Assembly: GCA_024231215.1 (NCBI GenBank)
Contig: JAAEQR010000202.1
Span: forward strand, 302 to 64,301
Length of the DNA stretch: 64,000 bases
Source of the DNA: PVC group bacterium
Lineage (GTDB): Bacteria; Omnitrophota; Gorgyraeia; B26-G9
Reading direction: 5' to 3'
The notes beneath the pieces were generated by a model. The model worked only from the letters and a program-made list of their open reading frames with translations, searched no databases and was not told the DNA's origin. Shown here one piece after another: positions 15,596-44,555 of this stretch. Both the position numbers and the translations under genes were made by a program. The first letter of the stretch is position 1. Each line of letters opens with the position of its first letter.

Positions 15596-16600
15596 ATGAA
15601 AGGAATTATAATTTTTTTAGTAATACTGTTATTGGGAGGAGGGTTTGCGACAGATGTTGTGGCAGATAGTGTGAAGGAGAAACTTGATAGGATGTCTGCC
15701 GTTTTATCAACATCCCCATTTGGCCGTGAGTTTTATGTACTAAACAGCGATAGTCCACTTTATCCAATAGCACGGGAAAGATTAAAACCATACCCGGACG
15801 GTCAAAGAAAGTTATTTACTTCAATAGATAATGCTAATTCGGCATGTCTTGCAAACCGTGGTGATACAATTTATTTGATTGGTGGGTATACTAACACAAC
15901 ACTTGTGCCTGGTGTAACGTTTGCAAAGGATGACGTTAGCGTGATAGGTGTTGGGCCGTCAATCCCAACATTGGGTGGAAACGGTGTGGGGGCAGCAGTA
16001 ACAATAACAGCAGATAATTTCAAAATGAGGAATGTTGAAATTGTGGCTGGCAGAACTGACAATTCAATTGCTCTTATGTATATTGGGACTGGGGTAGGAA
16101 CACCCAAAAATGTAGTTCTGGAGGATATGCGATTTATAGCTGGAACAGAAACAAGATCAACTACAGATGCAATTATTATAGATAGTGTGGATTCTCTTGT
16201 TATGCGGAATTGTTTTATTTCAAATCCATTTGGTAATACATACGTCCCAGCTTCCTTGGTGGAGTTTGTGGGTGGGTGCACTAATAGCCGACTTGAGAAA
16301 AACATCATTACTGGTTATGTCAGCGGTGCTGCGCTTGAAGATCAATATGCATCAACCGGATTGATTCTGATCGATAATATTGTTGCTGTTAGTGGCACTA
16401 CAGCCGAGGCTGCGACACTCGATTCAAATCCAAATTTTCTAGTTTCTGTTAACAACAAATGGGCTGGTTCGGATACTACGTTAGCCAATATTGCTGAATT
16501 GGGCGCACAGGCTTTAATATTTGATAATCGTGTGCTTGAGGGTTCTCACCATCAAGACATTCAAGCAACAGATGTTGAACCGAGTATTGATACTGATTAA
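15596..16600 (+). CDS. right-handed beta-helix (pectate-lyase-like) protein with N-terminal signal/anchor
   Basis: 334 aa with an N-terminal hydrophobic segment. It has repetitive V/I-x-N/G-x beta-helix rungs (NVEIVAGRTDNSIALMYIGTG, NVVLEDMRFIAG, CFISNPFGN). Confidence 0.4.
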   Translation: MKGIIIFLVILLLGGGFATDVVADSVKEKLDRMSAVLSTSPFGREFYVLNSDSPLYPIARERLKPYPDGQRKLFTSIDNANSACLANRGDTIYLIGGYTNTTLVPGVTFAKDDVSVIGVGPSIPTLGGNGVGAAVTITADNFKMRNVEIVAGRTDNSIALMYIGTGVGTPKNVVLEDMRFIAGTETRSTTDAIIIDSVDSLVMRNCFISNPFGNTYVPASLVEFVGGCTNSRLEKNIITGYVSGAALEDQYASTGLILIDNIVAVSGTTAEAATLDSNPNFLVSVNNKWAGSDTTLANIAELGAQALIFDNRVLEGSHHQDIQATDVEPSIDTD

Positions 16601-16605
16601 TTAAT

Positions 16606-16920
16606 ATGCCACAAAATCAAGACAACGAGGGTTTCCTGCTGACCAGCATGGATTGTAATGATTCATTGCTTGAGGTGGACGACCTAACGAGGACAATTTT
16701 ACTGAATAGAATTCAGGAAATGCATGCAGCCATAATGATGGTAGATGGCCAGATGCCGACTCAGCAGGAACTTCTCGATTTTAGTAAAACCATTAATCAC
16801 GGTAATGCATTAACGTTTATATGGCGTGGACAACCATTGTTGCGCTTTGATGAGCCGATTTATATTGGTAATGACATTAAACAAAACGTGCATTATTTAT
16901 TTAACGTAGAGGAGCATTAA
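16606..16920 (+). CDS. hypothetical protein
   Basis: 104-aa ORF. Confidence 0.35.
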   Translation: MPQNQDNEGFLLTSMDCNDSLLEVDDLTRTILLNRIQEMHAAIMMVDGQMPTQQELLDFSKTINHGNALTFIWRGQPLLRFDEPIYIGNDIKQNVHYLFNVEEH

Positions 16921-16921
16921 A

Positions 16922-17887: not shown

Positions 17888-17889
17888 TA

Positions 17890-18072: not shown

Positions 18073-18146
18073 AAAGTGCTGCCCAGATTCCATAAGAGAA
18101 CCGTTGGCGGAAATAATGATAATTATTATTCAGGGAGGTTCTTATT

Positions 18147-19172
18147 ATGGGAGCAGCAACAACTAGGTTTGGAGATATTACTCCAAGAACAGCGGTCTTT
18201 TCCGCTGCGGGTTTTTTAAAACGGGGGCAGCCGAGACTACTCACCGAACGATTTGGCCAACCCAAACCAATCCCCAAGAAACACAGTAAGGTAATTAAGT
18301 TTAGACGGTACGAAGCACTTGCCACGGTTGAAGCACCTTTGGCTGAAGGTGTGCCACCTACAGGTCAGAAATTAACAGCGACCGATTACACAGCCACATT
18401 GGAGCAATTCGGAGACTTTACAGAAATTACCGATGTTATTATGGATACCCACGAAGACAACGTGCTTCAGGAGGGTATTAAAACAGTTAGTGAGCAGGCC
18501 GCACAAACCATTGAACTTGTTCGTCTCGCAACGCTGAAAGCCGGTACAAATGTTTATTACGCTGGAACTGGTACAACCAGGGCGACAGTTGATGCCGCAC
18601 CGGCACGTAAGGATTTCAGGAAGATAGTTCGCGGTCTTAACAGGTACAATGCAAACACGATTGAATCAATCGTGAAGGCAAGTCCAAAGATAGACACCGA
18701 GCCGGTTAACCCCTCATTTTTTGGTATTTGTCACACCGATCTTAAACCCGACTTACGTGGCGTAACCAGCTTCATTGAAGTTAAGAATTACGCCGACAGT
18801 GACAAAAGCATAGCGGGTGAGTTCGGTTCTATTGAAGATGTCCGTCTTTGTTGCTCTACGATGGTTAAACCGTGGCTTGCACAGACTACCGATTCGTCAG
18901 TGACGTACCTGAGTAACGGTAGCGAAGTAACCACAGCAGGCGCATCCGACGTTTACCCCATTCTTGTTTTTGCACAGGACGCTTACGGCATTGTTCCATT
19001 ACAGGGTAAAAACGCGGTGAAACTGATGGTTATAAACCCCGACATGCCGTCAAAGGGTGACGAGTTAGGGCAAAAGGGTTTTGTGTCGTGGAAAATGTAT
19101 CAGGCTTGTGTGATTTTAAACCAGAACTGGATGGCACGACTGGAAGCATTGGTAGTAGCAGAACCTACTTAA
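18147..19172 (+). CDS. major capsid protein (HK97-like)
   Basis: 341 aa. Its size and position after the scaffold fit a major capsid protein. It has a strong ribosome-binding site (GGGAGGT) and a strong terminator sits two genes downstream. Confidence 0.55.
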   Translation: MGAATTRFGDITPRTAVFSAAGFLKRGQPRLLTERFGQPKPIPKKHSKVIKFRRYEALATVEAPLAEGVPPTGQKLTATDYTATLEQFGDFTEITDVIMDTHEDNVLQEGIKTVSEQAAQTIELVRLATLKAGTNVYYAGTGTTRATVDAAPARKDFRKIVRGLNRYNANTIESIVKASPKIDTEPVNPSFFGICHTDLKPDLRGVTSFIEVKNYADSDKSIAGEFGSIEDVRLCCSTMVKPWLAQTTDSSVTYLSNGSEVTTAGASDVYPILVFAQDAYGIVPLQGKNAVKLMVINPDMPSKGDELGQKGFVSWKMYQACVILNQNWMARLEALVVAEPT

Positions 19173-19894: not shown

Positions 19895-19899
19895 TCTAA

Positions 19900-19930
19900 C
19901 CGGGGGGTGAAATTCCCCCCACTTTTTTAA
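19900..19930 (+). terminator. rho-independent terminator
   Basis: CCGGGGGG-TGAAATT-CCCCCC hairpin followed by ACTTTTTTAA. Confidence 0.6.
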
Positions 19931-19943: not shown

Positions 19944-20726
19944 ATGACAGAAGATACCGCAAGTGTCGAGAACACTCAGAGTACAGAAGTTGACTTTGGT
20001 GCCATACAAAACGCTCAAAAAACAAACAAGGTAAGTAGCGGAAAGAAGCGTGGCCGAAAGCCAAGAGCAAAAAAAGAACCGCCAAAACCGGAGTCATTAA
20101 TACCGCAGATGGTAGCAGAGGCTAGAGCGGAGGAGGAGAAAATTCGTTTTGCAACACCGGAAGTTAAGTCGGAACCGATAGCGTGGCAGGAAGAACTTGT
20201 TGTGAAAATACGTAAGGAATATCCTGAAGACGAAATATCATACAAGTATTCTGACGAGAAATTGAATCCATCCGAAAGTAAGCATTTTTACGAGGTGAAC
20301 GGAACAACGGTTAAAATTGACGGTGTGCACAATATCCACAATCTGGACAAAGCTGTTCGCAGGGCGGAAACCTATTATGAGGTTATTTTCGCCGAAAGGT
20401 CTGATCCAACCGCAACCAAACAGGTTAGTTTAACCGTTAATGGCGAACAACTTCTTTTTAAACGTGGGGTAAAAACGCTTATTCCACACAGGTTCCTTGC
20501 AGCCAACGAAAATGCCGTTAGGCCACTGTTTTTTCTTGGGTCTGAGGCATCAAAGAGAAAAGTCGTGGGCAAGCTCTCAACCTATCCGCGTTCAATTCAA
20601 CGAGAACCATATCATCACATCAAAAATCCCGATGGCGTTACAGAGGCAGAATATCTAAAACTCAAGAAGATTGGTGATGTTTTGATGCAAAAAGAAATTA
20701 GCAAACAGGAACGGGAACAAGAATAA
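19944..20726 (+). CDS. virion structural protein (basic N-terminus)
   Basis: 260-aa ORF. Confidence 0.35.
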   Translation: MTEDTASVENTQSTEVDFGAIQNAQKTNKVSSGKKRGRKPRAKKEPPKPESLIPQMVAEARAEEEKIRFATPEVKSEPIAWQEELVVKIRKEYPEDEISYKYSDEKLNPSESKHFYEVNGTTVKIDGVHNIHNLDKAVRRAETYYEVIFAERSDPTATKQVSLTVNGEQLLFKRGVKTLIPHRFLAANENAVRPLFFLGSEASKRKVVGKLSTYPRSIQREPYHHIKNPDGVTEAEYLKLKKIGDVLMQKEISKQEREQE

Positions 20727-21604
20727 TGACAAGATATCTTTCCGATGTTAAGCGGGCCGTGTCGGACATTTGTGGCAAAGACTATTCAGACGATGCGGTT
20801 ATTGACAGGCAAATTTTAGCTGGAATCAACTGGGCACGGAACGATATCGGGTTAGAACAATTAACTTTTTTAAGAACAAGGGCGTATATCAACGTAACTG
20901 CCAACACCCTGGTTTATGATCTTGCGAGTGATTTTAACACAATAGATAAAATTTTCATTTGTGCTACCACCAACGAAATAGGTGATGTTACCACATGGAC
21001 ACTAGACACCTCGGCAAACAAGACAGGACATGTTGACGCTGCGGTGGAAGACGATGTGGGTGAGGATTCTGTAATCCGAATAGGGGAGTTGGATTATGTT
21101 ATTCAATCCATAACCGGTGATGGCACTGCCGCTGATTCAATAGAATTGGATTATGCCGCTGCTTCGGGAACGGTTAGATATATCGGTGATGAGGATTATT
21201 CAAACAAACGAATGGAGGAACTTGACGAGGCCGAATACTTGCACGACATCACTAATTTTCCCGCATCTACCGACAAAAACGTTCCTGAGAAATTTAAAAT
21301 CTCCGGCGTAAACAGTGCCGGGACACAGACCATTTTTGTTGGTGACCCCACATCAGATGACAATTACCTTATAATATACGATTATTTCGCAGAACTAGCA
21401 GAAATGACGACAAACGGAACCGAATACGCACTTACAAAAGCGTATCGGGACATTACACCGCTTGTATATGGCGCAATAAGATATTGTTATCAGAATTTCT
21501 GGTTTGAAGACAAACTTTCTATCTATATTGGTCTGTATGCAGAGGAACGGACGAAGGTTATAAACAAATTGGGCATAAGACGAGAGGATGATATCTCAGG
21601 ATAA
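20726..21604 (+). CDS. virion structural protein
   Basis: 292 aa. Its ATG overlaps the upstream stop. Confidence 0.35.
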   Translation: MTRYLSDVKRAVSDICGKDYSDDAVIDRQILAGINWARNDIGLEQLTFLRTRAYINVTANTLVYDLASDFNTIDKIFICATTNEIGDVTTWTLDTSANKTGHVDAAVEDDVGEDSVIRIGELDYVIQSITGDGTAADSIELDYAAASGTVRYIGDEDYSNKRMEELDEAEYLHDITNFPASTDKNVPEKFKISGVNSAGTQTIFVGDPTSDDNYLIIYDYFAELAEMTTNGTEYALTKAYRDITPLVYGAIRYCYQNFWFEDKLSIYIGLYAEERTKVINKLGIRREDDISG

Positions 21605-21986: not shown

Positions 21987-23144
21987 ATGAAAGATAAATT
22001 AAAAACAACTTTATGTGTTGTTTTAATAGTGTTCTTTTTATGTCTATTGCAAAACCCCAACCTGTATTCTGCTTGGGATTATACAAGACCAAATATCTGG
22101 ACTGATACCGGGTCAACTGGCTCAACGGCATCACAGGCCAATTTCTCATGGCTAAATACATGGATAACGACACTATTTGGCCGGTGGGAAACAAATGTTT
22201 GGACAGACGGTGCCGATACTGACGGCCCCGGTAATATGCAATTCGCCGGGCCGGTAAGAAACATTGATGTAAGCACATATCCAATTGCTTCATCGCTGGC
22301 ATCACCTGATGATTGTAGTCTGCTTGTTGATACATCTGATGCCAATAATTATATCCTGAAAGTTTACAATTCAACAGAAGGTAGTTTTACCGGTGTTGCT
22401 GGTGTGAGTATGACCGGTATAGCCGGTTTAAGATATAACGATGCGCTTGGCACTGGACGGTCAACACCGACATCGTGGTATTTCACTGAGAATTACGTTA
22501 ACATTATGCTTGAGAATGGTCTTCGGTCTACACAGGCCACGGAAAACAGCATCCAAAAAATAACGCTTGATGGCGATGCGTTTTTACAACAGGACAAAAC
22601 TTGGCCAATACATGTTAGTGGGGTGGGCCTTGATGAATCTGCACCACCAGAAGTTAGTTGGAAAAGCCACACAACATGTACATATCTTAAATACAAGACG
22701 CTACTTTTTGATGACACTAATGCTGAGCGCATTCATTATGATACAGATATTCCAAGCAATGTATCAACAACATACAGTTCCGGTAATGTTTATATTGATG
22801 CAACCATGTCACCGGAGGGTGACGCAACAAGTGGTCACGCTGTTTTCGCAATGTATTTTGTGCCATACGCAGTTACTACAACGTTTTCTGATTATTCAAG
22901 AGACTTGTCTGTTTATCAAATAACAAATACTTGTTATTCAGTTACCACAACAAGATATTTCGATACCAGTCTAACAAATACCGCATATAGACTGCCATTT
23001 ACCATGACATATAACCTTATCGAAGCATTGAGTAGGGTCTATTTAACTATTGTCAGGCAGGGGCATGATGCCGAAGATACTTTTAAGGGTGATATCAGAA
23101 TGCTTCATTTGGGCATGAGGGGCAAAGTTAAAAACGTTGATTAA
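21987..23144 (+). CDS. structural/tail protein with N-terminal signal-like segment
   Basis: 385 aa. The N-terminal hydrophobic segment CVVLIVFFLCLLQ is signal-like, and the protein is Ser/Thr/Tyr-rich and fibre-like. Confidence 0.35.
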   Translation: MKDKLKTTLCVVLIVFFLCLLQNPNLYSAWDYTRPNIWTDTGSTGSTASQANFSWLNTWITTLFGRWETNVWTDGADTDGPGNMQFAGPVRNIDVSTYPIASSLASPDDCSLLVDTSDANNYILKVYNSTEGSFTGVAGVSMTGIAGLRYNDALGTGRSTPTSWYFTENYVNIMLENGLRSTQATENSIQKITLDGDAFLQQDKTWPIHVSGVGLDESAPPEVSWKSHTTCTYLKYKTLLFDDTNAERIHYDTDIPSNVSTTYSSGNVYIDATMSPEGDATSGHAVFAMYFVPYAVTTTFSDYSRDLSVYQITNTCYSVTTTRYFDTSLTNTAYRLPFTMTYNLIEALSRVYLTIVRQGHDAEDTFKGDIRMLHLGMRGKVKNVD

Positions 23145-23153: not shown

Positions 23154-24236
23154 ATGAAAAAATATATAATTTTATTGGTGCTTCTGTCATTTTCTATTAA
23201 TGCACACGCAATTGGTGTTGACGATGCGCCGGAATCTATTTTTGGTGATGGGTCGGATGGAGCATTAAGCACTGTTGGTAATGTTACATATGGCTCTGCT
23301 AACCAAATGGCCGTCCATAAACAATACACTGATTTTACTCTAAATGCAGGGCATGTTGTAACGGTGGATACCGCTTGTCGTGGATTGTATATCCATGCTA
23401 CGGGTACAATAACATTAAATACTGGTCATGTAACAATGACTGGGTTGGGCTATTGTAATTCAAACGAGGGTGCTGGTTATCTTATAACAAAAACATCGTC
23501 TAATTTCACATTTGCTACATCAGCAACCACAACGAAATATTTTAAAGAAATTCGCGGCGCGGGTGGGGGTGCCGGTGGCGCGGGTGGTGCAAGCGCAGGT
23601 TGTCTGTTCGGTGGTTGTGTGGTGGGTGCTGGGGGTGCTGGGGGCGAAGGAAATATTTATGGCGGTGGTCTTGGTGGTGGTGGCGGTAGTGGGACTTGGC
23701 TTGACGATACTGGTGGTGATACTTGCGACGCCCCAGGCCAAGATGGTATGGATGCATATCAATGCGCTGGCGCAAATTCAGCAGCAACAATAAAAACGGT
23801 TGCCTGTGGGGTTGGGACGGCTGTAAATGCTCCCGGTGTTGGTGGTGTTAGTGGACTCAGGGCTGGGAATATATTTTTTATAGGCAGAGATATTGTATTA
23901 AACGGTGCCACTTTCAATTCTTTCGGTACGGTAGGTGGTTCTGGAACTGCAATGACACAGGTGGATTGTGCTGGAACTGCCGAGGATAGTGCTGGCGGGG
24001 GCGGTGCTGGCGGGGGCGGGGGCGGTGCTGTTACTTTCGTTTATAATACATTTACAGAAAGTTCTGCTGGAACATATAATCTTCAGGGTGCACTTGGTGG
24101 TGTTGGAGGTCAGGGTGGCACTAATGAGGGGTCTGGATGCGGTGGTGCTGACGGAAGCACTGGCAGTACAGGTTCAACTGGAAGAATTTATAAATACGAT
24201 ATACCAAACGAAACATTTACAGCAACGGCACCATAA
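23154..24236 (+). CDS. glycine-rich secreted or fibre protein
   Basis: 360 aa with a signal peptide (LLVLLSFSINAHA). It has long poly-Gly/Ala tracts (GAGGGAGGAGGASAG..., GGGAGGGGGGA) matching G-rich DNA repeats at 23560-23700 and 23990-24035. Confidence 0.4.
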   Translation: MKKYIILLVLLSFSINAHAIGVDDAPESIFGDGSDGALSTVGNVTYGSANQMAVHKQYTDFTLNAGHVVTVDTACRGLYIHATGTITLNTGHVTMTGLGYCNSNEGAGYLITKTSSNFTFATSATTTKYFKEIRGAGGGAGGAGGASAGCLFGGCVVGAGGAGGEGNIYGGGLGGGGGSGTWLDDTGGDTCDAPGQDGMDAYQCAGANSAATIKTVACGVGTAVNAPGVGGVSGLRAGNIFFIGRDIVLNGATFNSFGTVGGSGTAMTQVDCAGTAEDSAGGGGAGGGGGGAVTFVYNTFTESSAGTYNLQGALGGVGGQGGTNEGSGCGGADGSTGSTGSTGRIYKYDIPNETFTATAP

Positions 24237-31251: not shown

Positions 31252-31259
31252 TTATTATC

Positions 31260-33362: not shown

Positions 33363-36300
33363 TAAAATTAGTTATAATTACAATGGTTTTATTTATACCA
33401 AAAATATCGTATGGTGATTTCGATTCTGAGACATTATCTCAAGCTGCGTTTAAGAGACTTTTCGGCAAAACACATACGGAGCAAAAACATCTGGCTAATG
33501 AGTCTATCCCGTCTACATATACACTATCATCTGCCAAGGTGTTTGCTGAAACCATACCGTTAACGGCACCAGCAACACACACAAGCATTATGGTAGTGTG
33601 TGCTGATTCTGATGAAAGTGCATTAAAACTTGTTGAAATAGCCGCATCTAATGGTAATTCTTATGAAGCTACAGTACCCAACGCTAATCACCAATTAACA
33701 AACTATACCAATCCAACCACGGGTGCTGCTTATGCTAGTGGTGACAGAGTCTCATTTACAATACCATCCTCCTTTGGGACATCTTACAGACCAATATTAT
33801 ATGATAATAGTGTTGAGGTTCCACCGCTAGATGCTTCCGATTGGTTTTTGGATGAAAATGCCGGTGTTATTCATTCGGAAACAGACTTGGGTTTAAGCAC
33901 GACGGGTACACTGGATGCTTGGGTATATGTTGGCAAAATGGTAAATAGCTTTCATCCGTCTTATGATTTCATGACACCGACTTATTATAATAAACCTACT
34001 CACCCCGGATTAGTAGATAGTTCTTATGTGACAGCCACATACGAACCAGCTGGCAGTATACCGGACAGCAGCTTTCTTACTAACACTTATCATACTCAAG
34101 CATATTTAACACCAACTTATTACAACAAAGTTGTTCATCCGGGCTTGGTTGATAGTTCGTTTATTACCGAGACAAAACAGTTTATTACTAACACATACAC
34201 ACCGAGAAATGAATGGCTTCAAAATGGATTTCCGGCAGCATCAGATGTAACCATAACATGGTATGATGTAACGAGAACGCTTTACATTAGCCCCACTGGA
34301 ACTGATTTTTCTTATACATTGGATGGGATATTATATACAGAATCAGATGCTATTTATGAGACAATAGCAGATTCAACCAATTTATGGGTGTTCTATATTA
34401 GTGCCGAAGGCGTAATGGATAGCATTGAAAATCCCAACGAATCACAGGTGGACAGTATAATTGAAAACGAATGCATTGTTGCTTTTGTTTATTGGAATAC
34501 CGCAGCAAGCATATCTGACGGTAAATTATTCCATGAACTTCATGGCAATAGGATGAGTCCCCACACACACCACTGGATACACGATAACATTGGTGCTGTA
34601 TATAAGTCCGGCATGGCTTTGTCTGATTTTGTCGTTGACCAAAATGGCGATGATAATGAAGATGCACAATTCAGTGTAGCGTCGGGTGAATTTTACGATG
34701 AGGATGTTGAACACGATATGGGGGCTGTCGCAAAAGCAACCGGGATAGAAATTTGGTCGTTGGATGGGGGTGATTGGCAATGGTATACTAATGCAGGGTT
34801 TTCTGTAACTAATACTTACGGCCTTAATGATCGATTGGCGTGGAATGACGGTGGCACACAGGCGGAAGTTGATAATAATGATTTTGTTCTTTGCCATATA
34901 TTTGCTACAAATATTTCTAATGATTATGGTGTTGGCCGAAAATATATAGCCATTCAAGGGCAAGCAGAATATAACACAAAGGGGCAAGCGCGAGAAGGGG
35001 CTGAAACAGAAATTAATGATTTAACTTATGGGAATTTACCTTTGCCCGAATTGGTGCCGATTGCTACAATTATTTTTCAATCTGGTAACGGTTATAATAA
35101 TGATGTTAAAGCAAAAATCGTATCAACTGACGCTGGGGATAATTATATTGATTGGCGAGGAAGTGGCATAAAAGCAACTGGTGGGTCTGTGGCAGATCAT
35201 GGTGCATTGGCTGGTCTTGCAGATGATGACCATACGCAATATTACAAAGATGGCGATATCACAAATACATATTGGACAACAGATGTGAGTGCAGATAACG
35301 TAATAGATGGTGTTAATTTAAAAGACGATACGGTGGATTCGCAGCATTATGTGGCTGGTTCGATTGATGAAGAACATTTAAATTCAACAAACGAACCAAC
35401 AGATAATTATGTACTGTCTTATAATTTGGCTGGTACAAATTTCACATGGATAGAGGCAGCAGCCGGGGGTGGCGATGCGTGGAGTGATCCAGTAGATTCC
35501 AGTCTTATACCAGATGCAGACAACACGTATGATATCGGAAGTAGCGGCTATGAATTTAAAGACGGGTATTTTGATGGCACATTAGAGGCAGATGAAATCA
35601 CCGAAGGCGGCAGTGCAGTATTTAGTTCCGGGGAGGCCGCCACATTCTCTACAGTTAATACAGGACAGGGTGCTTATGAACTGTACGCCATGAATCAAGA
35701 TGTTGAAAGTACTGACGCAGTTACCTTTCTTACTGTAGACACAGGACAAGGTGCAAACGAATTATACACAATGAATCAAGACGTAGAATCTACAGATACC
35801 GTTACTTTTGATGCTGTAACAACCGACCTTATTAGCGATGCTGGTGATATTGATTTTCAACCAAGCGGTGATTCAGATGACTATTTTACAATGAAAACCA
35901 CATCCAATACGCCGACATTTTTAAGCACTGGTGGGGGGATGATAATAGAATCTGAAGATTCATATGATATCCATTTAAAACCAAGCAGTGGGATAGCTTT
36001 AATTACTGGTGCTATTAGTGAAACAAATTCACATGGCCCAGTCTTGCCCGAAGCTAAATCGCTCCCACCGGGATATACATTCTTACATACCACCACTGGA
36101 CGATCTATTCTATATACTTCAGACGGTTCGAACTGGACTCCCGTGCAGTCTATTGGGACTATGGTGCTGTATGTAGATGCTACTGATGGAGAAAACATTC
36201 TTGGAACAAAGGGGACAGGTGTTGATGGTGATGCTTTTGCTACTATTCAATTTGCTTGGGATGCTATACCCCCCATCTTTAATGGAGATGTTACTATTAA

Positions 36301-37204
36301 CATTAACTCTGAAATATATGAAGAGACTTTAGAATTGTACGGGAAAACTCCTGGTGGGCCTTATAGTATTACTTTTGAAGGAACCTTATCAGCATCAGTC
36401 GATGATGGGACAGCGGAAGCATCATCATCTAAGGGTGCCGCATCGACAAGGGCGCATGTTGATGACGCTAATGAATTTCCTGATTCAGCAACAGGTATGT
36501 TGCTTAATTTAGATGCTGGTGGTGATAATGATTGGCGAATTATACGTTCTATAGATGCTGGTGAGGATATTGCTACTCTTTGCGGAATGACTACGAGCGA
36601 ACCTGATGCTAATGCTTGGGCAGTTTATGAATGGGCTACGGAAATAGATGGAAAGGGTTCCACAACAATTCTATTAGATGGACAAAAGAATGTTATATTT
36701 AAAAACATAAAGTTTTCGTCAGATGGTTCTACTTTCCTAGCTACTATACAAAATTTTAGCACCGCAGAGTTTTGGTATTGCCATCTTGAGGGGAGAGTAG
36801 ATTTTAGACTATCTAAGGGGGTTATTGATACCTGTTATTTTAACACAAGTGACAATGTTATAAATCTGTATTCACGGGATAGTTCGCTTATAGATTGTTT
36901 TAGATCACTTTTCGTAAATGATAGACAAACTGCTGTATGGGTATTTATAGTATCTGGAATTAACTTTGGGTATGGAAGTACCATAGATGAGGTGGATAAT
37001 GGTGCAGATGCTATAAGAATTTACAGAAACTCTGTAGGGGTTATTTATGGGGGTGGGACGTATGGTAATGCGTGGTTTGAAAACGCTGACAATGCCATAA
37101 CATCAGACTATGGTGGTCAGGTTTTGGGAGTAGGTGCAGCTGTTTACCTTTTCAACAATGGCGACGAAAACGCAGTAGCAGCATCTTATGGGTATATAGA
37201 CTAA
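33359..37204 (+). CDS. large tail fibre/tailspike protein with internal tandem repeats
   Basis: 1281 aa with a hydrophobic N-terminus. It has a degenerate ~45-aa repeat (TPTYYNKPTHPGLVDSSYVTATYEPAGS / TPTYYNKVVHPGLVDSSFITETKQF) and a ~27-aa tandem repeat (TGQGAYELYAMNQDVESTDAVTF x2). The C-terminal region is beta-helix-like. Confidence 0.5.
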   Translation: MIKLVIITMVLFIPKISYGDFDSETLSQAAFKRLFGKTHTEQKHLANESIPSTYTLSSAKVFAETIPLTAPATHTSIMVVCADSDESALKLVEIAASNGNSYEATVPNANHQLTNYTNPTTGAAYASGDRVSFTIPSSFGTSYRPILYDNSVEVPPLDASDWFLDENAGVIHSETDLGLSTTGTLDAWVYVGKMVNSFHPSYDFMTPTYYNKPTHPGLVDSSYVTATYEPAGSIPDSSFLTNTYHTQAYLTPTYYNKVVHPGLVDSSFITETKQFITNTYTPRNEWLQNGFPAASDVTITWYDVTRTLYISPTGTDFSYTLDGILYTESDAIYETIADSTNLWVFYISAEGVMDSIENPNESQVDSIIENECIVAFVYWNTAASISDGKLFHELHGNRMSPHTHHWIHDNIGAVYKSGMALSDFVVDQNGDDNEDAQFSVASGEFYDEDVEHDMGAVAKATGIEIWSLDGGDWQWYTNAGFSVTNTYGLNDRLAWNDGGTQAEVDNNDFVLCHIFATNISNDYGVGRKYIAIQGQAEYNTKGQAREGAETEINDLTYGNLPLPELVPIATIIFQSGNGYNNDVKAKIVSTDAGDNYIDWRGSGIKATGGSVADHGALAGLADDDHTQYYKDGDITNTYWTTDVSADNVIDGVNLKDDTVDSQHYVAGSIDEEHLNSTNEPTDNYVLSYNLAGTNFTWIEAAAGGGDAWSDPVDSSLIPDADNTYDIGSSGYEFKDGYFDGTLEADEITEGGSAVFSSGEAATFSTVNTGQGAYELYAMNQDVESTDAVTFLTVDTGQGANELYTMNQDVESTDTVTFDAVTTDLISDAGDIDFQPSGDSDDYFTMKTTSNTPTFLSTGGGMIIESEDSYDIHLKPSSGIALITGAISETNSHGPVLPEAKSLPPGYTFLHTTTGRSILYTSDGSNWTPVQSIGTMVLYVDATDGENILGTKGTGVDGDAFATIQFAWDAIPPIFNGDVTININSEIYEETLELYGKTPGGPYSITFEGTLSASVDDGTAEASSSKGAASTRAHVDDANEFPDSATGMLLNLDAGGDNDWRIIRSIDAGEDIATLCGMTTSEPDANAWAVYEWATEIDGKGSTTILLDGQKNVIFKNIKFSSDGSTFLATIQNFSTAEFWYCHLEGRVDFRLSKGVIDTCYFNTSDNVINLYSRDSSLIDCFRSLFVNDRQTAVWVFIVSGINFGYGSTIDEVDNGADAIRIYRNSVGVIYGGGTYGNAWFENADNAITSDYGGQVLGVGAAVYLFNNGDENAVAASYGYID

Positions 37205-38246: not shown

Positions 38247-38470
38247 TGACATTTCTATACAATGGTGCATTACCGCATCGAGGGCAAGCACTGAAGGGGT
38301 GGGCAGAACGCAGCATCCCCGGCATGCCCATAAGTTATTTTGCCCCAAGGCGTGTGGGCGGCCAGCCTGTTAGTATAGGTATTGACAGAAGATTGGTAGT
38401 AGCAAGAAAACAAGATGACGAAATGCTGGAATTAATAACAATAATTACAGGTTCAGGGATACTAAATTAG
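38246..38470 (+). CDS. hypothetical protein
   Basis: 74-aa ORF with overlapping stop/start. Confidence 0.3.
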   Translation: MTFLYNGALPHRGQALKGWAERSIPGMPISYFAPRRVGGQPVSIGIDRRLVVARKQDDEMLELITIITGSGILN

Positions 38471-41400
38471 TGGCATCTTTTGATTATTGTAAAAAATTAC
38501 TCGGGTTGTCGGATGGTTTTTTGGCAGAATTTGCGCAACGCCAGAAAGAAATAATTGCATCTGGCAAAAAGAAAGCAACTGGCTTGGTGGGTTTTGACGC
38601 AGAAACTGTTAAAACATTTACAGAAGAACTTCGTGGTGAACGCGATGCTATACTAAAACAAGTAGGGTACGAAAAACCAGTTACGGTTGAACCTGAAGCG
38701 GCACCCAAAGCTAGAAAAACTATCCCCATCAAAGACACCGGTCTGCAATTTGACAAAAAGGGATATGAACTTGCTGACAAATTTAACAAGGCGAATCCTG
38801 AATTTAATTTAGAGTACAAAGGCACCACTGGCGAATTAAGTCAATTTCACCCTAAGGGTCTGCCAGAGAATATGCGGTCTGACATAGTGACAAAGAATTT
38901 TGGCTATGTTGATCTTATTAATAAAACCAAGGATTTAAAAGAACGATTTGCTAAAGAAGTACCCAAAGAGGTTACGCCGGAGAAAAAAGCCGCGGTGGGG
39001 GTTGAAAAATTAGAAGAAATTAAAACTATTCTGGCCAAAGACAATTTAAAAATTACAGACGAAACAGCATTAAAAGAGTCACTAAAAAAGGATCAAGATA
39101 AATGGCGTGACGAAATAAGGAAAATCGATGACTATCCACACCCGCGACAAATTGATATACCAATTCTAGCAGATACCCTAAAAAAAATGAATCTCAAACC
39201 GTGGGGGGATACCAAAAAGGAATTCCCTATAATTACAAAATTCTTGGAAGAAAGTTTTTTGGGTGAAAAGAAGCCAAAAGATTTGACTATAAAGGAAATG
39301 GTCGAAGGCGAGGGCGAAGTTGGTGCTTATAAGATAGGTAAGCATGATGCCAAAATAAGTATTCTTAAAAAAATAAAATCTAAGAGAGTTGAAGTAGCTG
39401 ACATTAAAAAAAGCATATTGGATTATTCAAAACAAAATCTAACAGAATTGGATAGAAACAAAATACATCGACTCACTACCAAAGCTACAACACAACTCGG
39501 ATTAAATAGGGCATTAAAAGAAATTGACAGGGTAGAAGAAAGATACCAGAGAAAAACTGCTGTTGCTGATTTAAAGGAAACAAGGGCATCCATTGATTTT
39601 AAGCAACTACGTCCAGAATATAAATCGACAATTGAGAGTATTTTTACTGACGTTGATTTAGTGAATCGTGCCGACAAAACTACCAGAGGATTAGAAAGTC
39701 TTGCCGATCATCTTGAACGAAATCCAGATGCTAATATACCACCGCAATATATACGAAAACTGGGTAGATTAGAGAAGAAGGAAATTAAGGACTTAGCAAC
39801 AGAAGATATAACACTAATTAATAATTCAGTAAAAAGTTTAGTTCATCAAGAAAAACAAAAAAATAAATTCCTTGCTGTGGGGAAAGTACGGGATTTTAAT
39901 AAGGGTAAAGCACAGGCAATAGAAAATGTTAAAAGCGATAAGGGGCGTGTTTTTAAAAAGTATAAAAACAAGGAGCCGGGGTTATTGCGCACAACCGGAA
40001 TAGACTTTCTTAACATGGAGTATATGGCTAAACATTTGGACAAAGCAGACAGAGATATAAATAAAGCCATTACTTATGATGTTTTAAACGAAGGTGTTAG
40101 AGATACTATAAAAATGAGGCGTGATGCAAAATCAGAACTACGTGGAAAAACGAAAGACGTTGATATGGATAACTGGAGTGAATCTTTTCATGTCCAGCGC
40201 AAAGAGGGCAAAAACAGGAAAAAAGTAGACTATAAGAAAATTAAACTTTCTTCGGGAAAAACCATAGAACTTAACTCTGCGGAAAGAATACAGATGTATT
40301 TGCTTGGTCAAAGAGAACAGGCATTGGGGCATTTGCTTGCAGATACCGGGGGAATACGCATTGAGCAGGATTATAAAAAACCGAGATATAAACTTACCGG
40401 TGAGGATATAGATGCCATAACAAAACTAACGCCGGGGGAAAAAAGGGTGGCGGATGCGCTGCACGATTATTATAATATCACACAAAAAAACAAAATTAAT
40501 GAAACCAGTGTGAAAATTAATAACCGAGAAGATGCAACAGAAAAAAATTATGTTCGTATAAGAATATTTGGTGAAGACATCCAACGCGACTATCTAACAA
40601 AAGGCATGTTGCCCGGAGATATGAATAATTTCACCAAATTTTCAGTTGAGGGCATGGGTTGGTTAAAACCTACAACACCAGGAGCAAAGCAACCAATTTT
40701 ATTAGAAGATGCTTTCAATGCTCATATGCGAAGCATGATAGAAGCATCTGCATATCACGGTTTAGCTGCACCACTTAGAGATGCAAAGGCTCTTATAAAA
40801 GACCCCGATTATAGAAAAACCATACGGAATAATTATGGTGAACATTATTTAAAATACATGGATAGATATTTAGTTGAAATGGAGGGCGAGTATAGAAACG
40901 TTGATAATGTTGAAAAAATAACACAGGAGGCAATAAACAGACTAGACAGTGCTTTCTTGGGTGCAAATCCGTGGATTATGGTTAAACAGACAATTTCATA
41001 TTTTGGTGCTTCTCAGGAAATAAAGTGGAAATATCTATTAAGGGCATCCAAAACAAAGGGTGTATCGGATGAAGTTATTAAAAAATATAGTCCCGAAGGT
41101 GGGGAGCGATTAGAGGGGAAAATAACTAGGGAGTTAGGGGAGGTTGCTAATGTTGGTAAGGTACGGCAATTTTGGACAGACAAAACGACCTTACCACAAA
41201 AAACAATGGCCGGTATTAGAAAATTTGATAGTGCAACTATTAAAAGAATTTGGAAGGCAGTGGAATATGAAACTAACGAACTTCATCCCAAACTTAAGGG
41301 TGATGAACGAATGAATCACATTGCACGTAGGGCAGAGGAGGTTATACGTTTAACGCAGCCTACATTTGAAACAAAAGATCGCTCTGCTATAGGCCGTAGT

Positions 41401-42045
41401 CCAGCCACATTTACAAGACTTATTACAAAATATTCATCGCAAAGAAACAAAAACGTGATGATGGAGCATAGAGCGATTAACAAATATTTACAGAGTGAGA
41501 GAACATCACATGATAAAAAAGCCCTTGCAAGTGCTGTTGTAACGCTTGGTGTGTTAAAGGCACTTACTTTGTATAGTGTGGATGAGTTGCGGAACCTTAC
41601 CTATGGCAGAAAAGAACCAGACAATAAGAACAGACATAGGGCACTCAAATGGATGGAATATACCCTTGGTGATATTTATGTCGTTGGAAATATATTTAGT
41701 AACATAGTGAGTGGTATTGAGTATGGTAGTTTCGCTAAAGGACAATCTGACATTATATCCTCTACGGCTGGGGACTTCACAGATGCTATGGTCGCCGCTT
41801 GGAATGCAGCAGGGGAATGGGTTGACCAAAGCACTTTTGAATCGGGGAAAAACGAGGACGAAAAGAAATGGATCAATTCTATTATAAAAGCCGCTGATAA
41901 TTCTGCCGCCGTCTATCTTCACGTAAGGCGTGGAATACCATATAGAACAATTAAAAAGATGGTTGGAATACCATTTGTCGATAGGAGTAAAGAAAAAAAA
42001 TCAACTGGCAAAACCACCACAAGACCCGTTAGGAAAGAAAATTAA
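38470..42045 (+). CDS. large K/E-rich internal virion protein (ejection/tape-measure-like)
   Basis: 1191 aa with a strongly charged lysine/glutamate-rich N-terminal 700 aa and predicted coiled coils. Confidence 0.4.
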   Translation: MASFDYCKKLLGLSDGFLAEFAQRQKEIIASGKKKATGLVGFDAETVKTFTEELRGERDAILKQVGYEKPVTVEPEAAPKARKTIPIKDTGLQFDKKGYELADKFNKANPEFNLEYKGTTGELSQFHPKGLPENMRSDIVTKNFGYVDLINKTKDLKERFAKEVPKEVTPEKKAAVGVEKLEEIKTILAKDNLKITDETALKESLKKDQDKWRDEIRKIDDYPHPRQIDIPILADTLKKMNLKPWGDTKKEFPIITKFLEESFLGEKKPKDLTIKEMVEGEGEVGAYKIGKHDAKISILKKIKSKRVEVADIKKSILDYSKQNLTELDRNKIHRLTTKATTQLGLNRALKEIDRVEERYQRKTAVADLKETRASIDFKQLRPEYKSTIESIFTDVDLVNRADKTTRGLESLADHLERNPDANIPPQYIRKLGRLEKKEIKDLATEDITLINNSVKSLVHQEKQKNKFLAVGKVRDFNKGKAQAIENVKSDKGRVFKKYKNKEPGLLRTTGIDFLNMEYMAKHLDKADRDINKAITYDVLNEGVRDTIKMRRDAKSELRGKTKDVDMDNWSESFHVQRKEGKNRKKVDYKKIKLSSGKTIELNSAERIQMYLLGQREQALGHLLADTGGIRIEQDYKKPRYKLTGEDIDAITKLTPGEKRVADALHDYYNITQKNKINETSVKINNREDATEKNYVRIRIFGEDIQRDYLTKGMLPGDMNNFTKFSVEGMGWLKPTTPGAKQPILLEDAFNAHMRSMIEASAYHGLAAPLRDAKALIKDPDYRKTIRNNYGEHYLKYMDRYLVEMEGEYRNVDNVEKITQEAINRLDSAFLGANPWIMVKQTISYFGASQEIKWKYLLRASKTKGVSDEVIKKYSPEGGERLEGKITRELGEVANVGKVRQFWTDKTTLPQKTMAGIRKFDSATIKRIWKAVEYETNELHPKLKGDERMNHIARRAEEVIRLTQPTFETKDRSAIGRSPATFTRLITKYSSQRNKNVMMEHRAINKYLQSERTSHDKKALASAVVTLGVLKALTLYSVDELRNLTYGRKEPDNKNRHRALKWMEYTLGDIYVVGNIFSNIVSGIEYGSFAKGQSDIISSTAGDFTDAMVAAWNAAGEWVDQSTFESGKNEDEKKWINSIIKAADNSAAVYLHVRRGIPYRTIKKMVGIPFVDRSKEKKSTGKTTTRPVRKEN

Positions 42046-42070: not shown

Positions 42071-42544
42071 ATGACACTTAAAAAAACGCTACTCATTTTA
42101 CTGGCAATTCTGATTATACCCACCACGGCGTTTTGCCTTGACGAAATGAAGGAATTTAAGTCTACACCAATTATTTGGTATAATTGGCAGAACATTTCGA
42201 TGACGCAGGCAATCAATGCTATTTCTCTTACATCAAAACCAATCCCAATACATAATGACACCGGGTATTTCAGCGTAGAGGGTTATTTAGAGGGGGGCGG
42301 TACAATAGATGTTGAATACCGAGCCAGTAACAGGGGACAAGACTATGTAAGACCTGAAAATGTCGGCAATTTTTTGTCTGATTTCAATGGTAGCGGCCAC
42401 GCCAGTCCGGGTGGGTCGGCATCAGACGGTCGTTTCATAAAAAGTCTTGCACCGATTCCATGTGCGTTTATAGTATTTTATATATCAGAAACAACGTTTA
42501 ATACCGGCATATCGCCAACAAGATGGGTGTTGGGGCATCAATAA
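42071..42544 (+). CDS. secreted protein (signal peptide)
   Basis: 157 aa with N-terminal LLILLAILIIPTTAFC and a GGAGGT ribosome-binding site. Confidence 0.4.
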   Translation: MTLKKTLLILLAILIIPTTAFCLDEMKEFKSTPIIWYNWQNISMTQAINAISLTSKPIPIHNDTGYFSVEGYLEGGGTIDVEYRASNRGQDYVRPENVGNFLSDFNGSGHASPGGSASDGRFIKSLAPIPCAFIVFYISETTFNTGISPTRWVLGHQ

Positions 42545-42582
42545 AATGAGCATTTCAATAACGCAAAAAAGTTAATTATTGG

Positions 42583-43071
42583 TTGGAGGCAGTGATGACA
42601 AAAAAACTATTTTTATATATCTTGATGTTGATTTTCATACCATCGTTTTGTATGGCTGCGGGCAGTGCATGGGATACTGGTGTAGACATACACGAAGAGA
42701 CTTGGACGCTTGCAGACCGTGGTGATTGGAAAGAAGAAGCTTGGGTGTTGGGTGGCCCACCCGAAGATAATGGCTGGAGCATTCAATCCATAGTTGCCGT
42801 TATTTCAGCCACATCTTACGCTACAATGACTTTTAATTTGGCCGAGGTTGCTTTTGGGCCGCTTACCGACACACGTAGCTACTTATCTACCCCAAATATC
42901 CTAGTCGATACTAATGCCATTAGTGTAACAGCCGCGGCTTTAGCTGATACGAGTATAGCAGCGAGGTCTAAGATATTATTTACCACACCAAACGTAATGG
43001 CGGTGGATACAAGCGGTGCAAATCCTGTGTTTATTAACGTAACCATTGAATATAAATTGGTGGCACCATAA
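42583..43071 (+). CDS. secreted protein (signal peptide)
   Basis: 162 aa with N-terminal LFLYILMLIFIPSFCMAAGSA. Confidence 0.4.
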   Translation: MEAVMTKKLFLYILMLIFIPSFCMAAGSAWDTGVDIHEETWTLADRGDWKEEAWVLGGPPEDNGWSIQSIVAVISATSYATMTFNLAEVAFGPLTDTRSYLSTPNILVDTNAISVTAAALADTSIAARSKILFTTPNVMAVDTSGANPVFINVTIEYKLVAP

Positions 43072-44555
43072 TGAAAAAACTAATTATTATATTCATAATT
43101 TTATTTTGGGCAAGTGGAGCGTGGGGGGCTAATTGGTATGTTGATATGGACGGAGCCAATGGTGATGGGTCGCAGGGTACTCCGTGGAATGAGCTTGAGA
43201 ATGTAACAGGAACGTCACCTGGGGATAGTATTTATGCTAGAGGTACCTTAGTAGATACATCATCAGAACAAAAGATTCGCAGGTGTACTGGGACTTATTG
43301 GTATGGCAATGACCCTACTTGGGCTGGAAGCAACCAAGCAACGGTAATTATGCCAGGAGACAATTATGGAATAGTTTTTGAATCTGGCGAAAATTCTAAT
43401 ATTGTAATTGATGGATTTTATGTGTCTAATCCTATTGCGGATGGCAAGTCTGCATTATATGTTGGATCATATAATAGTGAAATACGAAATTGTATAATAA
43501 AAGATGCTGGTGCAAGTGCATTTTCTGTACGAGCATACAAGAGTGATATTACCAAAACTTATATCCACAATAATGATATAAATGGTGTTGGGTTAACTGA
43601 TTCCGAAAGTGGTTATGGAATTAATCTTACACCCAATCCTACAACATACAATTATCTAGGCGGCTTTACGGTCACCTACAATACATGGAGAAATTTAAGT
43701 GAATCTCCAATAGGAACTATGGGGTCATATGTTTTAGTTGCAAATAATTATGTTTGGGGAGTGGGAGAGCTTAGTCCAAGCGGAAATGAAAATTGTTGGC
43801 AACATAATGCCAGATCCGGCGTGAAAGACACCAACTTAATATTTATAAATAATGTTTGTGCAAATATTACGGGTTCCGGGGCTACCCCAAGCATTGGTGC
43901 AGGTGAATGGATAAGTAATATATTTGTACAAAATAATATTTTCGCTAATGCTACAGGCATTAATACTGTTGCTAATTTTGCTACGGGTCATCTAGGGTAC
44001 AGATCAGATCAGTTTGTTTTTAAAAACAACATAGTTTACAATTTTGGAACGGCTGATTGTGTTAATGAAACCAATATTTTTGGTGGAGCTATTAGAATCT
44101 ATTCTTTTAAACCATCTGGAATAAACATGGTTACGGGAACGTACATTAAAGATAATATTTTTTTTAATGATAAGTATCCAGATGATAACATTATTTGCGT
44201 TACTGACCCATACGCAAATTATGATGTTGCTGGGATGGAGACATGGGTTAATGACACCAAGGGGGGTACGGCAAGCGGGAATAAGCAAATTAAACCGGCC
44301 ATTGGTTCAGTATTCACTGATGAAGTAACCAATTTTATGCTTGCTACAGAAAACGCAGCCGGGGCTAAGTCATCGAACATCACCGGTGGAAATACTTATG
44401 CCGCAACGGTACAGATTGGTACCGATGGTGATGGTGATCCATGTGTATTATTTCCTGACGATTATAACGGTGATACCAGACCAACAGGAGCAGATCCGTG
44501 GAACATGGGGCCATTCAGCACATACAACGAGGGGCGGCGAAGAAGAACACAATAA
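43071..44555 (+). CDS. secreted right-handed beta-helix protein (polysaccharide lyase/depolymerase-like)
   Basis: 494 aa with the signal peptide MKKLIIIFIILFWASGAWGANW. It has many NNxI/V rungs (NNDINGVGLT, NNVCANITG, QNNIFANATG, KNNIVYNFG) typical of pectin-lyase-fold proteins. Confidence 0.45.
   Translation: MKKLIIIFIILFWASGAWGANWYVDMDGANGDGSQGTPWNELENVTGTSPGDSIYARGTLVDTSSEQKIRRCTGTYWYGNDPTWAGSNQATVIMPGDNYGIVFESGENSNIVIDGFYVSNPIADGKSALYVGSYNSEIRNCIIKDAGASAFSVRAYKSDITKTYIHNNDINGVGLTDSESGYGINLTPNPTTYNYLGGFTVTYNTWRNLSESPIGTMGSYVLVANNYVWGVGELSPSGNENCWQHNARSGVKDTNLIFINNVCANITGSGATPSIGAGEWISNIFVQNNIFANATGINTVANFATGHLGYRSDQFVFKNNIVYNFGTADCVNETNIFGGAIRIYSFKPSGINMVTGTYIKDNIFFNDKYPDDNIICVTDPYANYDVAGMETWVNDTKGGTASGNKQIKPAIGSVFTDEVTNFMLATENAAGAKSSNITGGNTYAATVQIGTDGDGDPCVLFPDDYNGDTRPTGADPWNMGPFSTYNEGRRRRTQ

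Follow-up and report, generated by a model that had tools for sequence, protein, structure and literature searches.

Phage proteins that leave the cytoplasm are already known, as are phage depolymerases, both virion-bound and soluble. Lom and Bor of lambda and Cor of phi80 are exported phage proteins that act in the envelope; like T5 Llp and T4 Spackle, they are phage-encoded and carry Sec or lipoprotein signals, and some members of this group are encoded beside tail-fibre genes, but each stands alone, is small and is not a fibre protein, and many are expressed from a promoter of their own, early in infection or from the prophage. Signal-peptide and signal-anchor-release (SAR) endolysins serve as precedent for a late phage protein that is sent to the periplasm by the host Sec system before lysis. 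The tailspikes of P22, HK620, Det7 and Sf6 have a beta-helix fold and a distal position in the structural module, with an N-terminal particle-binding domain and no signal peptide (SP). Among cellular proteins, the glycanases of exopolysaccharide (EPS) clusters (WceF; a class including AlgL/AlgG, PslG and RbmB) carry an export signal directly before a right-handed beta-helix; WceF of Pantoea stewartii, which has an export signal and a tailspike-like beta-helix and is encoded in an EPS cluster, shortens stewartan chains (PMC7949094). Here we analysed 64,000 nucleotides of contig JAAEQR010000202.1 (GenBank assembly GCA_024231215.1, positions 302 to 64,301 of the forward strand; hereafter the window), a tailed-phage genome that takes up nearly all of the 64,661-bp contig (~40% GC), and identified eight proteins with predicted Sec SPs encoded within its late operon. 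The combination and its scale are new: eight SP proteins in one late operon, one of them assigned by homology to a cellular EPS-cluster family. New above all are the SPs that appear, from comparison with about 75 SP-less homologues, to have been added to the two proteins of a fibre gene pair. Compared with the Lom-type proteins, the window proteins are eight in number, reach 1281 amino acids (aa) and include fibre and glycanase homologues encoded in one late operon.

All eight genes are on the + strand. Seven of these N-termini had been recognised as signal-like in a preliminary description made from the letters alone, and each of the seven has the features of a Sec/signal peptidase I (SPase I) substrate; the 31206-33362 protein (718 aa, AQA↓R, the arrow marking the predicted cut) is an eighth case absent from that list. 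The calls were made with a home-made rule-based heuristic and comparative evidence. Every N-terminus consists of a basic n-region (net +1 to +2), an unbroken hydrophobic core of 10-15 residues (10-12 in seven of the eight, 15 in 21987) and usually a Pro/Gly/Asn break ahead of the cleavage site, and the mature protein opens with ten residues that are neutral or acidic. Predicted cuts are, in gene order, GFA↓T (15596), YSA↓W (21987), AHA↓I (23154), AQA↓R (31206) and SYG↓D (33359), followed in the terminal cassette by AFC↓L (42071), CMA↓A (42595) and AWG↓A (43071); residues -3 and -1 are small, except for the weak -3 Tyr of 21987. Motif and transmembrane (TM) scans of the eight proteins found no lipobox (L-x-[GA]-C), RR Tat motif, prepilin site (G↓F-T-L-I-E) or later TM segment. 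Lipoprotein, Tat, prepilin-type, type IX secretion system (T9SS) C-terminal-domain and PEP-CTERM sorting were considered and set aside, as the eight proteins carry no such signal.

An artefact, namely wrong start codons or chance hydrophobic N-termini in an AT-rich genome, could in principle produce such a pattern, given that 31206 relies on a TTG start, that the heuristic is home-made and that ~40% GC favours Ile/Leu/Phe/Lys codons. Wrong starts are made unlikely by the ribosome-binding sites that precede the SP-creating starts, which are AGGAGG at 15596, AAGGAGG at 42071, GGAGG at 42595, GGAG at 21987 and AAGGA at 23154; translation of 33359 and of 43071 is coupled to that of the gene before, for 33359 through an ATGA overlap with the 31206 gene. 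The open reading frame first placed at 42583 retains its SP, but its start is most likely ATG 42595, 5 nt past GGAGG. For 31206, the TTG start has an upstream AGGGG and the alternative ATG 31260 has no ribosome-binding site; because of the TTG start, this SP is graded as probable. Controls within and between genomes argue against compositional bias. Outside the late-gene block at 12.8-46.3 kb, only two SP-like genes were found, the anchored esterase at 4410 and a lipobox protein at 49429 on the other strand. When the same heuristic was applied to all loci (genes of at least 100 aa; + strand in the window), 10 of 38 window genes were SP-like, whereas 244 related phage loci together gave 86 of 2307 (3.7%; Fisher p=1.5e-6); among the cultured relatives, L001 has one SP-like gene and L002, L003 and L004 have none. 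In addition, the SP is kept in homologues of the 494-aa and 334-aa proteins described below. The SP count in the window is far above chance, and an artefact is exceedingly improbable.

The preliminary description had also proposed that these N-termini might be membrane anchors used during assembly, in which case they would remain uncleaved and tether the proteins to the inner membrane, either as an assembly platform or for controlled release. Protein 21987, with its 15-residue core and poor -3 Tyr, may indeed stay anchored, and the SGNH esterase at 4410 and a 284-aa protein in the related locus L089 look like true anchors; SAR endolysins, with holin-independent endolysins exported via signal-arrest-release sequences as an example (PMC7143992), offer a precedent for regulated release of anchored phage proteins. 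The cores of seven of the eight window proteins, however, measure 10-12 residues and are followed by Pro/Gly and AXA-type sites, which is too short for a stable membrane span; their basic n-regions predict an N-in/C-out orientation that would leave the bulk of each protein in the periplasm anyway, and cellular homologues with near-identical N-termini are secreted-type proteins. The likeness to SAR endolysins is likewise partial: SAR cores are Gly/Ala-rich, while those of the eight window proteins are strongly hydrophobic, and SAR and SP endolysins are peptidoglycan hydrolases, while none of the eight matches a lysin family. With short cores of 10-15 residues, canonical cleavage motifs and the positive-inside rule placing the bulk in the periplasm, anchoring is very unlikely. 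We consider it probable that these are functional, cleaved Sec SPs and that surface-directed proteins of this phage are periplasmic, with capsids and tails in the cytoplasm.

The products of two adjacent genes, 31206..33362 (+) and 33359..37204 (+), correspond to a conserved fibre pair. The upstream partner (718 aa, probable SP ...CFASTAQA↓R from the TTG start) belongs over residues ~113-717 to a widespread fibre-protein family and is ~34% identical (~30-36%) to proteins of 460-735-kb huge phages (LR756500-LR756508), where the homologous genes sit among genes with classic fibre N-termini. The downstream partner (1281 aa) is composed of an SP (MIKLVIITMVLFIPKISYG↓D), an 'AFK(R/N)L-GK' fibre N-domain (residues 21-198) and a central domain (287-620) that is common to an SP-less protein of the related locus L038; residues 21-198 match, at 28-45% identity, a protein encoded just downstream of the huge-phage 718-like genes. 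Its C-terminus is beta-helix-like by eye only, and hhalign of the 33359 C-terminus, 23154 and 31206 against beta-helix profiles matched signal peptides or nothing. In profile scans of IMG/VR (phages of 10-480 kb), SP-bearing homologues numbered 0 of 57 for the 718-like family and 0 of 18 for the 1281N-like family, and in all 19 loci containing both, the 1281-like gene is directly downstream of the 718-like gene, as in the window. Several 1281N-like homologues carry downstream PHROG domains annotated as tail fibre, tail spike or virion structural protein; from the tail fibre and tail spike domains we infer that the 1281-like family belongs to the virion.

Alignment A4 reveals that the only N-terminal difference between 33359 and its homologues is the insertion of residues 2-19 (IKLVIITMVLFIPKISYG). 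With the predicted cut after SYG, F31 and K32 become residues 12 and 13 of the mature protein, which is the register of most Met-less homologues, and the position of the 'AFK(N/R)L-GK' family motif (~residue 12) is matched by 33359 only after residues 1-19 are removed. Because of this insertion and the restored register, the SP appears to have been grafted onto a fibre protein whose native N-terminus was kept. The window pair therefore shares homology, gene order and adjacency with the AFK(N/R)L-GK family and its upstream partner, but differs in that the homologues start at the conserved N-terminus and only the window proteins have an SP in front of it. SPs on both partners would fit their co-localisation. 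The preliminary suggestion that the SP proteins are enzymes rather than tail components is consequently not supported as a general reading, since 31206 and 33359 represent a conserved fibre pair with SP-less homologues; judging from the sequences, export appears to extend to every candidate receptor-binding protein of the phage, and not simply to a set of non-structural extras.

These features bear on an explanation in which assembly is divided between two compartments. The SP proteins would then be real receptor-binding fibres or spikes that fold and mature in the periplasm (with disulfides, Ca2+ and no premature action on cytoplasmic precursors) and join fibreless particles built in the cytoplasm no earlier than the holin or lysis step, when the compartments mix, or in the lysate. 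We regard this as doubtful. It is favoured by the SP-less state of both families (0/57 and 0/18), by the PHROG tail fibre/spike domains of the 1281N-like homologues and by the canonical register that the SYG↓D cut generates, implying that an attachment function was kept. Fibres and tailspikes of T4 and P22 attach spontaneously to particles in vitro, which also counts for it. Searches of an open-access library, however, yielded no precedent among tailed phages for two-compartment assembly or for SPs on tail fibres, and dilution after lysis would make such assembly inefficient. Further evidence on both sides comes from the remaining genes.

The final gene of the structural block, 43071..44555 (+), encodes a 494-aa protein with an SP (MKKLIIIFIILFWASGAWG↓ANWYVD...), in which parallel beta-helix rungs had been noticed beforehand. 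The protein itself has no Pfam match (E<0.01) and no PHROG match. An exhaustive HMMER search retrieved three full-length homologues (P0003-5, 30-35% identity), each aligned from residue 1 and each with its own SP and the conserved 'YY.D..G.NG.G..PF' cap, and two of them, P0004 and P0005 (30-33% identical to 43071), score above the gathering threshold of Pfam PF13229 Beta_helix, with 39 and 36 bits. AlphaFold2 (AF2) on the four-sequence alignment predicted an N-terminal helix followed by periodic short strands (pTM 0.63, pLDDT 54; pLDDT 33 from the single sequence). Among the listed Foldseek matches of this model in the PDB, almost all are right-handed beta-helix proteins and most are glycan-active (E 2e-4 to 9e-3, TM-score 0.2-0.5), with the Det7 and HK620 tailspikes at the top and RbmB, PL6 alginate/chondroitin lyases, GH28 and AlgG also present. 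Pfam matches of the homologues and the structure prediction thus agree with the fold first read from the rungs, and the model supports assignment of the 494-aa protein to the right-handed beta-helix class. An enzyme class is not supported, as the structural matches are spread over PL6, GH28, tailspikes and an epimerase; for the beta-helix candidates, Pfam and NCBIfam gave no lyase or hydrolase family, a PDB profile search was empty and no catalytic residues were identified.

Both homologue lineages of 43071 with context examined (P0004 and P0026) sit inside bacterial Wzx/Wzy-type EPS/capsule clusters, not in phages, and their neighbours encode Wzz, Poly_export (Wza-type), a Wzx-type flippase, glycosyltransferases, a 2-epimerase, a sulfotransferase and a deacetylase. 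Homology to the cellular proteins extends from residue 1 to ~483 of the 494 residues and the helix cap begins at mature residue 1, and therefore 43071 has no phage-specific particle-binding domain such as the N-terminal domain by which a virion-anchored tailspike is recognised. Like the P22, HK620, Det7 and Sf6 tailspikes, it has a beta-helix fold and a distal position in the structural module; unlike them, it has an SP and leaves no room for a particle-binding domain. It resembles EPS-cluster glycanases in its export signal directly before the beta-helix, in the Wzx/Wzy-type EPS loci of its homologues and in the presence of RbmB and AlgG among its Foldseek matches. WceF differs in its Tat signal and P22-like N-terminal domain. 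The signal of 43071 is of the Sec type, the protein lacks a domain of that kind and has no detectable sequence similarity to WceF, and its gene closes a phage structural operon instead of belonging to an EPS locus; a glycanase role for 43071 is proposed by analogy. The SP-bearing homologues, their EPS-cluster context and the missing particle-binding domain together argue for the proposal, already made in the preliminary description, that 43071 may be a soluble exported glycanase rather than a tail component. The missing particle-binding domain and the likeness to cellular enzymes from end to end also count against two-compartment assembly.

Sequence searches beyond these homologues were largely negative. 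Indexed homology searches with the 494-aa and 334-aa proteins and profile A1 gave essentially only the query, the contig index lacks a protein identical to the 494-aa one, and neither single-protein IMG/VR scans nor a genome-collection scan with profile A1 produced a match. No tblastn match to 43071, 15596, 21987 or 23154 was found in 50,697 phage records, and none of the eight SP proteins could be assigned with Pfam, PHROGs or NCBIfam, except for one weak tail PHROG match in 33359. PDB sequence and profile searches returned nothing for the SP proteins searched.

The second beta-helix candidate is the 334-aa product of 15596..16600 (+, AGGAGG ribosome-binding site), which consists of an SP (MKGIIIFLVILLLGGGFA↓T), a ~22-aa linker and a probable right-handed beta-helix. 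The preliminary description had interchanged the places of the two genes: 15596-16600 lies between portal (12852-14798) and scaffold (16922-17887), and 43071 closes the structural genes, ahead of the putative lysis genes. Pfam, PHROG and NCBIfam contain no match for the 334-aa protein; hhalign relates its family to that of the 494-aa protein (82.5% probability, E=1e-5) over the N-cap/helix cap and first rungs, and rungs are visible in its sequence. The beta-helix originally proposed is therefore probable, with moderate support from hhalign and the rungs, though a direct Pfam match is lacking. The ~22-aa linker is all that precedes the helix cap, which again differs from the particle-binding domain of tailspikes. 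Members of the family (A3) were found only in the portal-scaffold slot of relatives, with an SP in L193 and L194/195 and without one in L005, whose homologue starts opposite residue 41 of the window protein.

Relatives whose capsid identity is 50% or more usually have 2-4.6 kb between portal and capsid genes, with one to three genes there besides the scaffold gene; in more distant relatives, the scaffold stands alone in the slot. The slot genes represent many unrelated families (149-826 aa). Their products have classical SPs in at least nine lineages, and the SP often leads into a fibre-like 'R-G-x3-F-T-G-x-V-T-F' start; L031 has three SP slot genes, one of them with a Pfam Beta_helix match at E=1e-22. 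Such a plastic host-interaction slot would fit an accessory exported enzyme better than a head component, and in this hypervariable accessory position, with SP proteins in many relatives, the reading of 15596 as a soluble secreted enzyme is plausible. As a separate observation, unrelated slot proteins of L009, L010, L172, L193, L194, L198, L203 and L237 have a similar mature N-terminus ('..R-G-x3-F-T-G-x-V-T-F..') after the SP, which suggests a common docking or fibre-initiation module in exported proteins of this clade.

The remaining four SP proteins are orphans. Two are encoded between the adaptor and the nozzle-like gene: a 385-aa protein (21987..23144, +; 15-residue core, YSA↓W, GGAG upstream) for which family libraries, related loci and the phage database contain no homologue, and a 360-aa Gly-rich protein (23154..24236, +) with a canonical SP (MKKYIILLVLLSFSINAHA↓I), FGDGSDGAL at its mature N-terminus and 9 Cys in the mature part, for which family libraries, the PDB, related loci and the phage database contain none. 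The other two, of 157 aa (42071..42544, +; MTLKKTLLILLAILIIPTTAFC↓L, AAGGAGG ribosome-binding site) and 158 aa (42595..43071, +; MTKKLFLYILMLIFIPSFCMA↓A, in an open reading frame that opens with TTG 42583 and has ATG 42595 after GGAGG), are likewise without a homologue in our searches. The slot after the adaptor is occupied by an SP-less pectate-lyase-type tailspike in L005 and an SP-less 708-aa fibre in L023, but by SP proteins in the window (21987 and 23154) and in L047, and no recognisable SP-less fibre or spike candidate is left in the genome; both points speak for fibres that take the periplasmic route to the particle.

Strong + strand terminators of the late region were found only at 12689-12722, 19902-19920 and 47808-47833; the first precedes the portal gene, the second follows the capsid and decoration genes and is likely to be an attenuator for high capsid expression, and the third closes the + strand block. 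Promoter-like sites are not enriched over shuffles in a scan tuned to the sigma-70 consensus, which may not suit a PVC host, and several SP genes overlap or abut their neighbours. Because flanking terminators and enriched promoters are missing and the genes abut, the SP genes are considered part of the late transcription unit, which is a further point in favour of fibres assembled across two compartments. Autonomous moron units (Lom/Bor-like, with their own promoter and terminator) were rejected, as no terminators flank the SP genes in the late operon; a temperate lifestyle with lysogenic conversion was rejected on the weak evidence that no integrase family was matched.

The broader form of the two-compartment explanation holds that all receptor-binding fibres and spikes of this phage travel via Sec, are matured by SPase and are added to the tail at lysis, and that this adaptation may be shared by phages of PVC-group or EPS-rich hosts, because SP proteins recur in structural modules of related and unrelated environmental phage contigs; we rate it as rather unlikely. 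Its dependence on lysis leads to the genes downstream of 43071. A protein with a lipobox-type SP (45866-46315, +, …FCG↓C) adjoins two TM proteins (45125-45421 and 45491-45664) and a 113-aa protein (44774-45115) with a LAS-peptidase-like 'S-x-H-x2-N-x-A-x-D' motif, and by sequence reading the 44.8-46.3 kb region looks like a putative spanin/holin/endolysin cassette. No family model confirms any of these lysis candidates, which weakens an assembly pathway that depends on lysis. Two other lipobox-type SPs are present at 47481-47777 (+, …LLGG↓C) and 49429-49839 (-, …VFWG↓C).

Receptor masking or superinfection exclusion would require the exported fibre-like and beta-helix proteins to bind or destroy the receptor that the phage itself uses, on the infected cell or a lysogen, so that further adsorption is blocked and progeny are protected, in the manner of T5 Llp and T4 Spackle. 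Exported exclusion proteins are well known, including the lipoprotein Llp of T5 (PMC9586334), the periplasmic Spackle of T4 (PMC7677548) and SieA of P22 (PMC10883804); receptor-binding domains would be ideal receptor blockers, and the portal-scaffold slot is hypervariable like other host-interaction genes. The known exclusion proteins, however, are small products of early or prophage expression with no relation to fibres, while the window encodes eight proteins of up to 1281 aa that are co-transcribed with late structural genes, without an integrase match; moreover, location in the periplasm alone does not reach receptors on the outer surface. Such a function is accordingly improbable.

Taken together, we tentatively favour the reading that the SP proteins form a free, exported, glycan-active kit. 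N-termini that are genuine SPase I-cleavable Sec SPs would direct the surface-directed proteins across the inner membrane late in infection, while heads and tails assemble in the cytoplasm. The exported set would comprise two or three beta-helix glycan-active proteins, both partners of the fibre pair and the four orphans; their signals would be cut in the periplasm, where the proteins would fold, and in 33359 the cut would regenerate the N-terminus of the family. The beta-helix proteins (43071, and probably 15596) may act as free enzymes that are not virion-bound, trimming or degrading host Wzx/Wzy-type EPS or capsule during polymerisation and export and then in the matrix once the cell opens, and the two fibre-pair proteins would share the export route because they function as a complex. 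Perhaps helped by the anchored SGNH esterase (4410-5474), which suggests further glycan modification, and with full release at lysis, such proteins could clear the way for progeny and destroy the receptor on debris. Export, cleavage, enzymatic activity, substrate and timing are all inferred here for the SP proteins, and the fibres may either remain free or join virions after the membrane is breached.

Several points weigh against this free-kit reading. Elsewhere, the fibre-pair families are virion components by PHROG annotation and gene neighbourhoods, and the exact canonical N-terminus of 33359 suggests that an N-terminal attachment function has been kept. If all fibre and spike candidates act free, no recognisable SP-less receptor-binding protein would be left in the genome for the podovirus tail. 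Export is not intrinsic to the family of the 334-aa protein, as its L005 member has no SP. Sec reaches the periplasm only, and crossing of the outer membrane before lysis has no explanation. The 494-aa model is mediocre (pLDDT 54, TM-scores 0.2-0.5) and no catalytic residues were found. Finally, the SPs were called with a rule-based heuristic, and the evidence is computational throughout.

The same signature was found in other phages. Weaker matches to the 494-aa protein with a near-identical SP and cap led to two further, unrelated phage contigs, L341 and L342. In L342 (Logan SRR29243421, 54.6 kb, with a giant virion protein), the structural block ends at 6094-12294 with genes that are all SP-like, encoding a 987-aa Pel9A-like beta-helix followed by proteins of 198, 232 (beta-helix) and 523 aa. 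In L341 (ENA ERZ28669879, 42 kb), the genes that close the structural block (2534-5027) encode a 128-aa SP protein, a 146-aa protein without SP and a 571-aa SP beta-helix, a layout that resembles the 42071/42595/43071 cassette of the window. L076 and L011 have SP proteins in fibre positions. The SP signature recurs in environmental phages, but nowhere as completely as in the window.

The rest of the structural module is that of a tailed phage. It is preceded by a gpA-type large terminase (9460-11088) and includes the portal protein (12852..14798, +; phrog_332, phrog_1216, Pfam SU10_portal), an acidic scaffold-like protein (16922-17887) and an HK97-fold, N4 gp56-like major capsid protein (18147..19172, +; phrog_1357, E=9e-61), which is 40% identical by tblastn to that of Pseudoalteromonas phage vB_Pun_Y3 and was the basis for defining the clade of relatives. 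The gene directly after that of the capsid encodes a 217-aa protein (19241-19894), which probably decorates the capsid or forms a head fibre; it is kept in 30 related loci, and L005, the closest relative, has three tandem paralogues of it (11101-13260). Further downstream are an adaptor-like (head-to-tail) protein (20726..21604, +) with a weak Pfam SU10_adaptor match, kept in 18 related loci, and a nozzle or 'stabilization'-type virion protein (24236..25840, +; phrog_3287, E=5e-11) with equivalents of ~510-530 aa in relatives. Between the nozzle-like gene and the genes for candidate internal proteins rich in Gly and Gln (26-31 kb), a Cys-rich protein of 76 aa (CTMCGACCKIFNC...C...C; 25837-26067) may be a small metal-binding or Fe-S-type protein of the tail module. 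The 1191-aa protein encoded directly ahead of the terminal SP cassette (38470..42045, +; phrog_28077 E=6e-137, phrog_22978) is related to the C-terminal part of giant virion proteins: its match to phrog_28077 (length 1524) is confined to the ~900 positions at the C-terminal end, and that to phrog_22978 (3513) to positions 2452-3048. It is a shortened form of the giant (~2,150-3,400 aa) virion proteins found at the same place in relatives, of which the StenR_269 copy is annotated as a putative virion RNA polymerase.

Outside the structural module, a divergent replication and DNA-modification module is on the other strand, and Pfam matches among the non-structural genes include MT-A70 (E=4e-27), Mom-family (E=5e-27), DUF3310, DUF1353 and DUF551. 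A Pfam scan of 57 window proteins revealed no integrase, repressor-type lysogeny gene or endolysin family. A low-GC island at 3900-5650 (31% against ~40%) encodes three small membrane proteins (3962-4255, 4237-4401 and 5422-5625) and the N-terminally anchored GDSL/SGNH-type esterase (4410-5474; Pfam Lipase_GDSL, 23.9 bits, just above the cut-off), and may be a glycan O-acetyl esterase or modification cassette complementing the beta-helix proteins.

The source record was binned as a bacterial metagenome-assembled genome (MAG; 'PVC group bacterium', locus tags GY853_), and the window contains a near-complete phage without bacterial flanks; the contig is a mis-binned or co-binned virus. The closest cultured phages share only 33-40% capsid identity, and no capsid relative above 56% identity was found in IMG/VR, 241 M metagenome records or GTDB genomes. 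A Lentisphaerae MAG contains, on a contig of 107.8 kb, the best genomic relative (54% capsid identity), an element that encodes an integrase. A further relative (43%) is in a Brevifollis (Verrucomicrobia) MAG; because of these relatives and the bin label, a diderm host of the PVC group is plausible.

Tailed-phage virion proteins are assumed to be cytoplasmic, an assumption on which annotation pipelines and host-range engineering lean. If the SP proteins were parts of the virion, they would point to a new assembly pathway, and virion assembly after export would be categorically new. If they act free, they would represent a secreted 'glycan-clearing kit' deployed before lysis, which would bear on biofilm and EPS turnover and on enzyme discovery in PVC bacteria. 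The same signature in L031, L076, L341, L342 and others indicates that these phages may belong to an overlooked class, and that the window may not be a single oddity.

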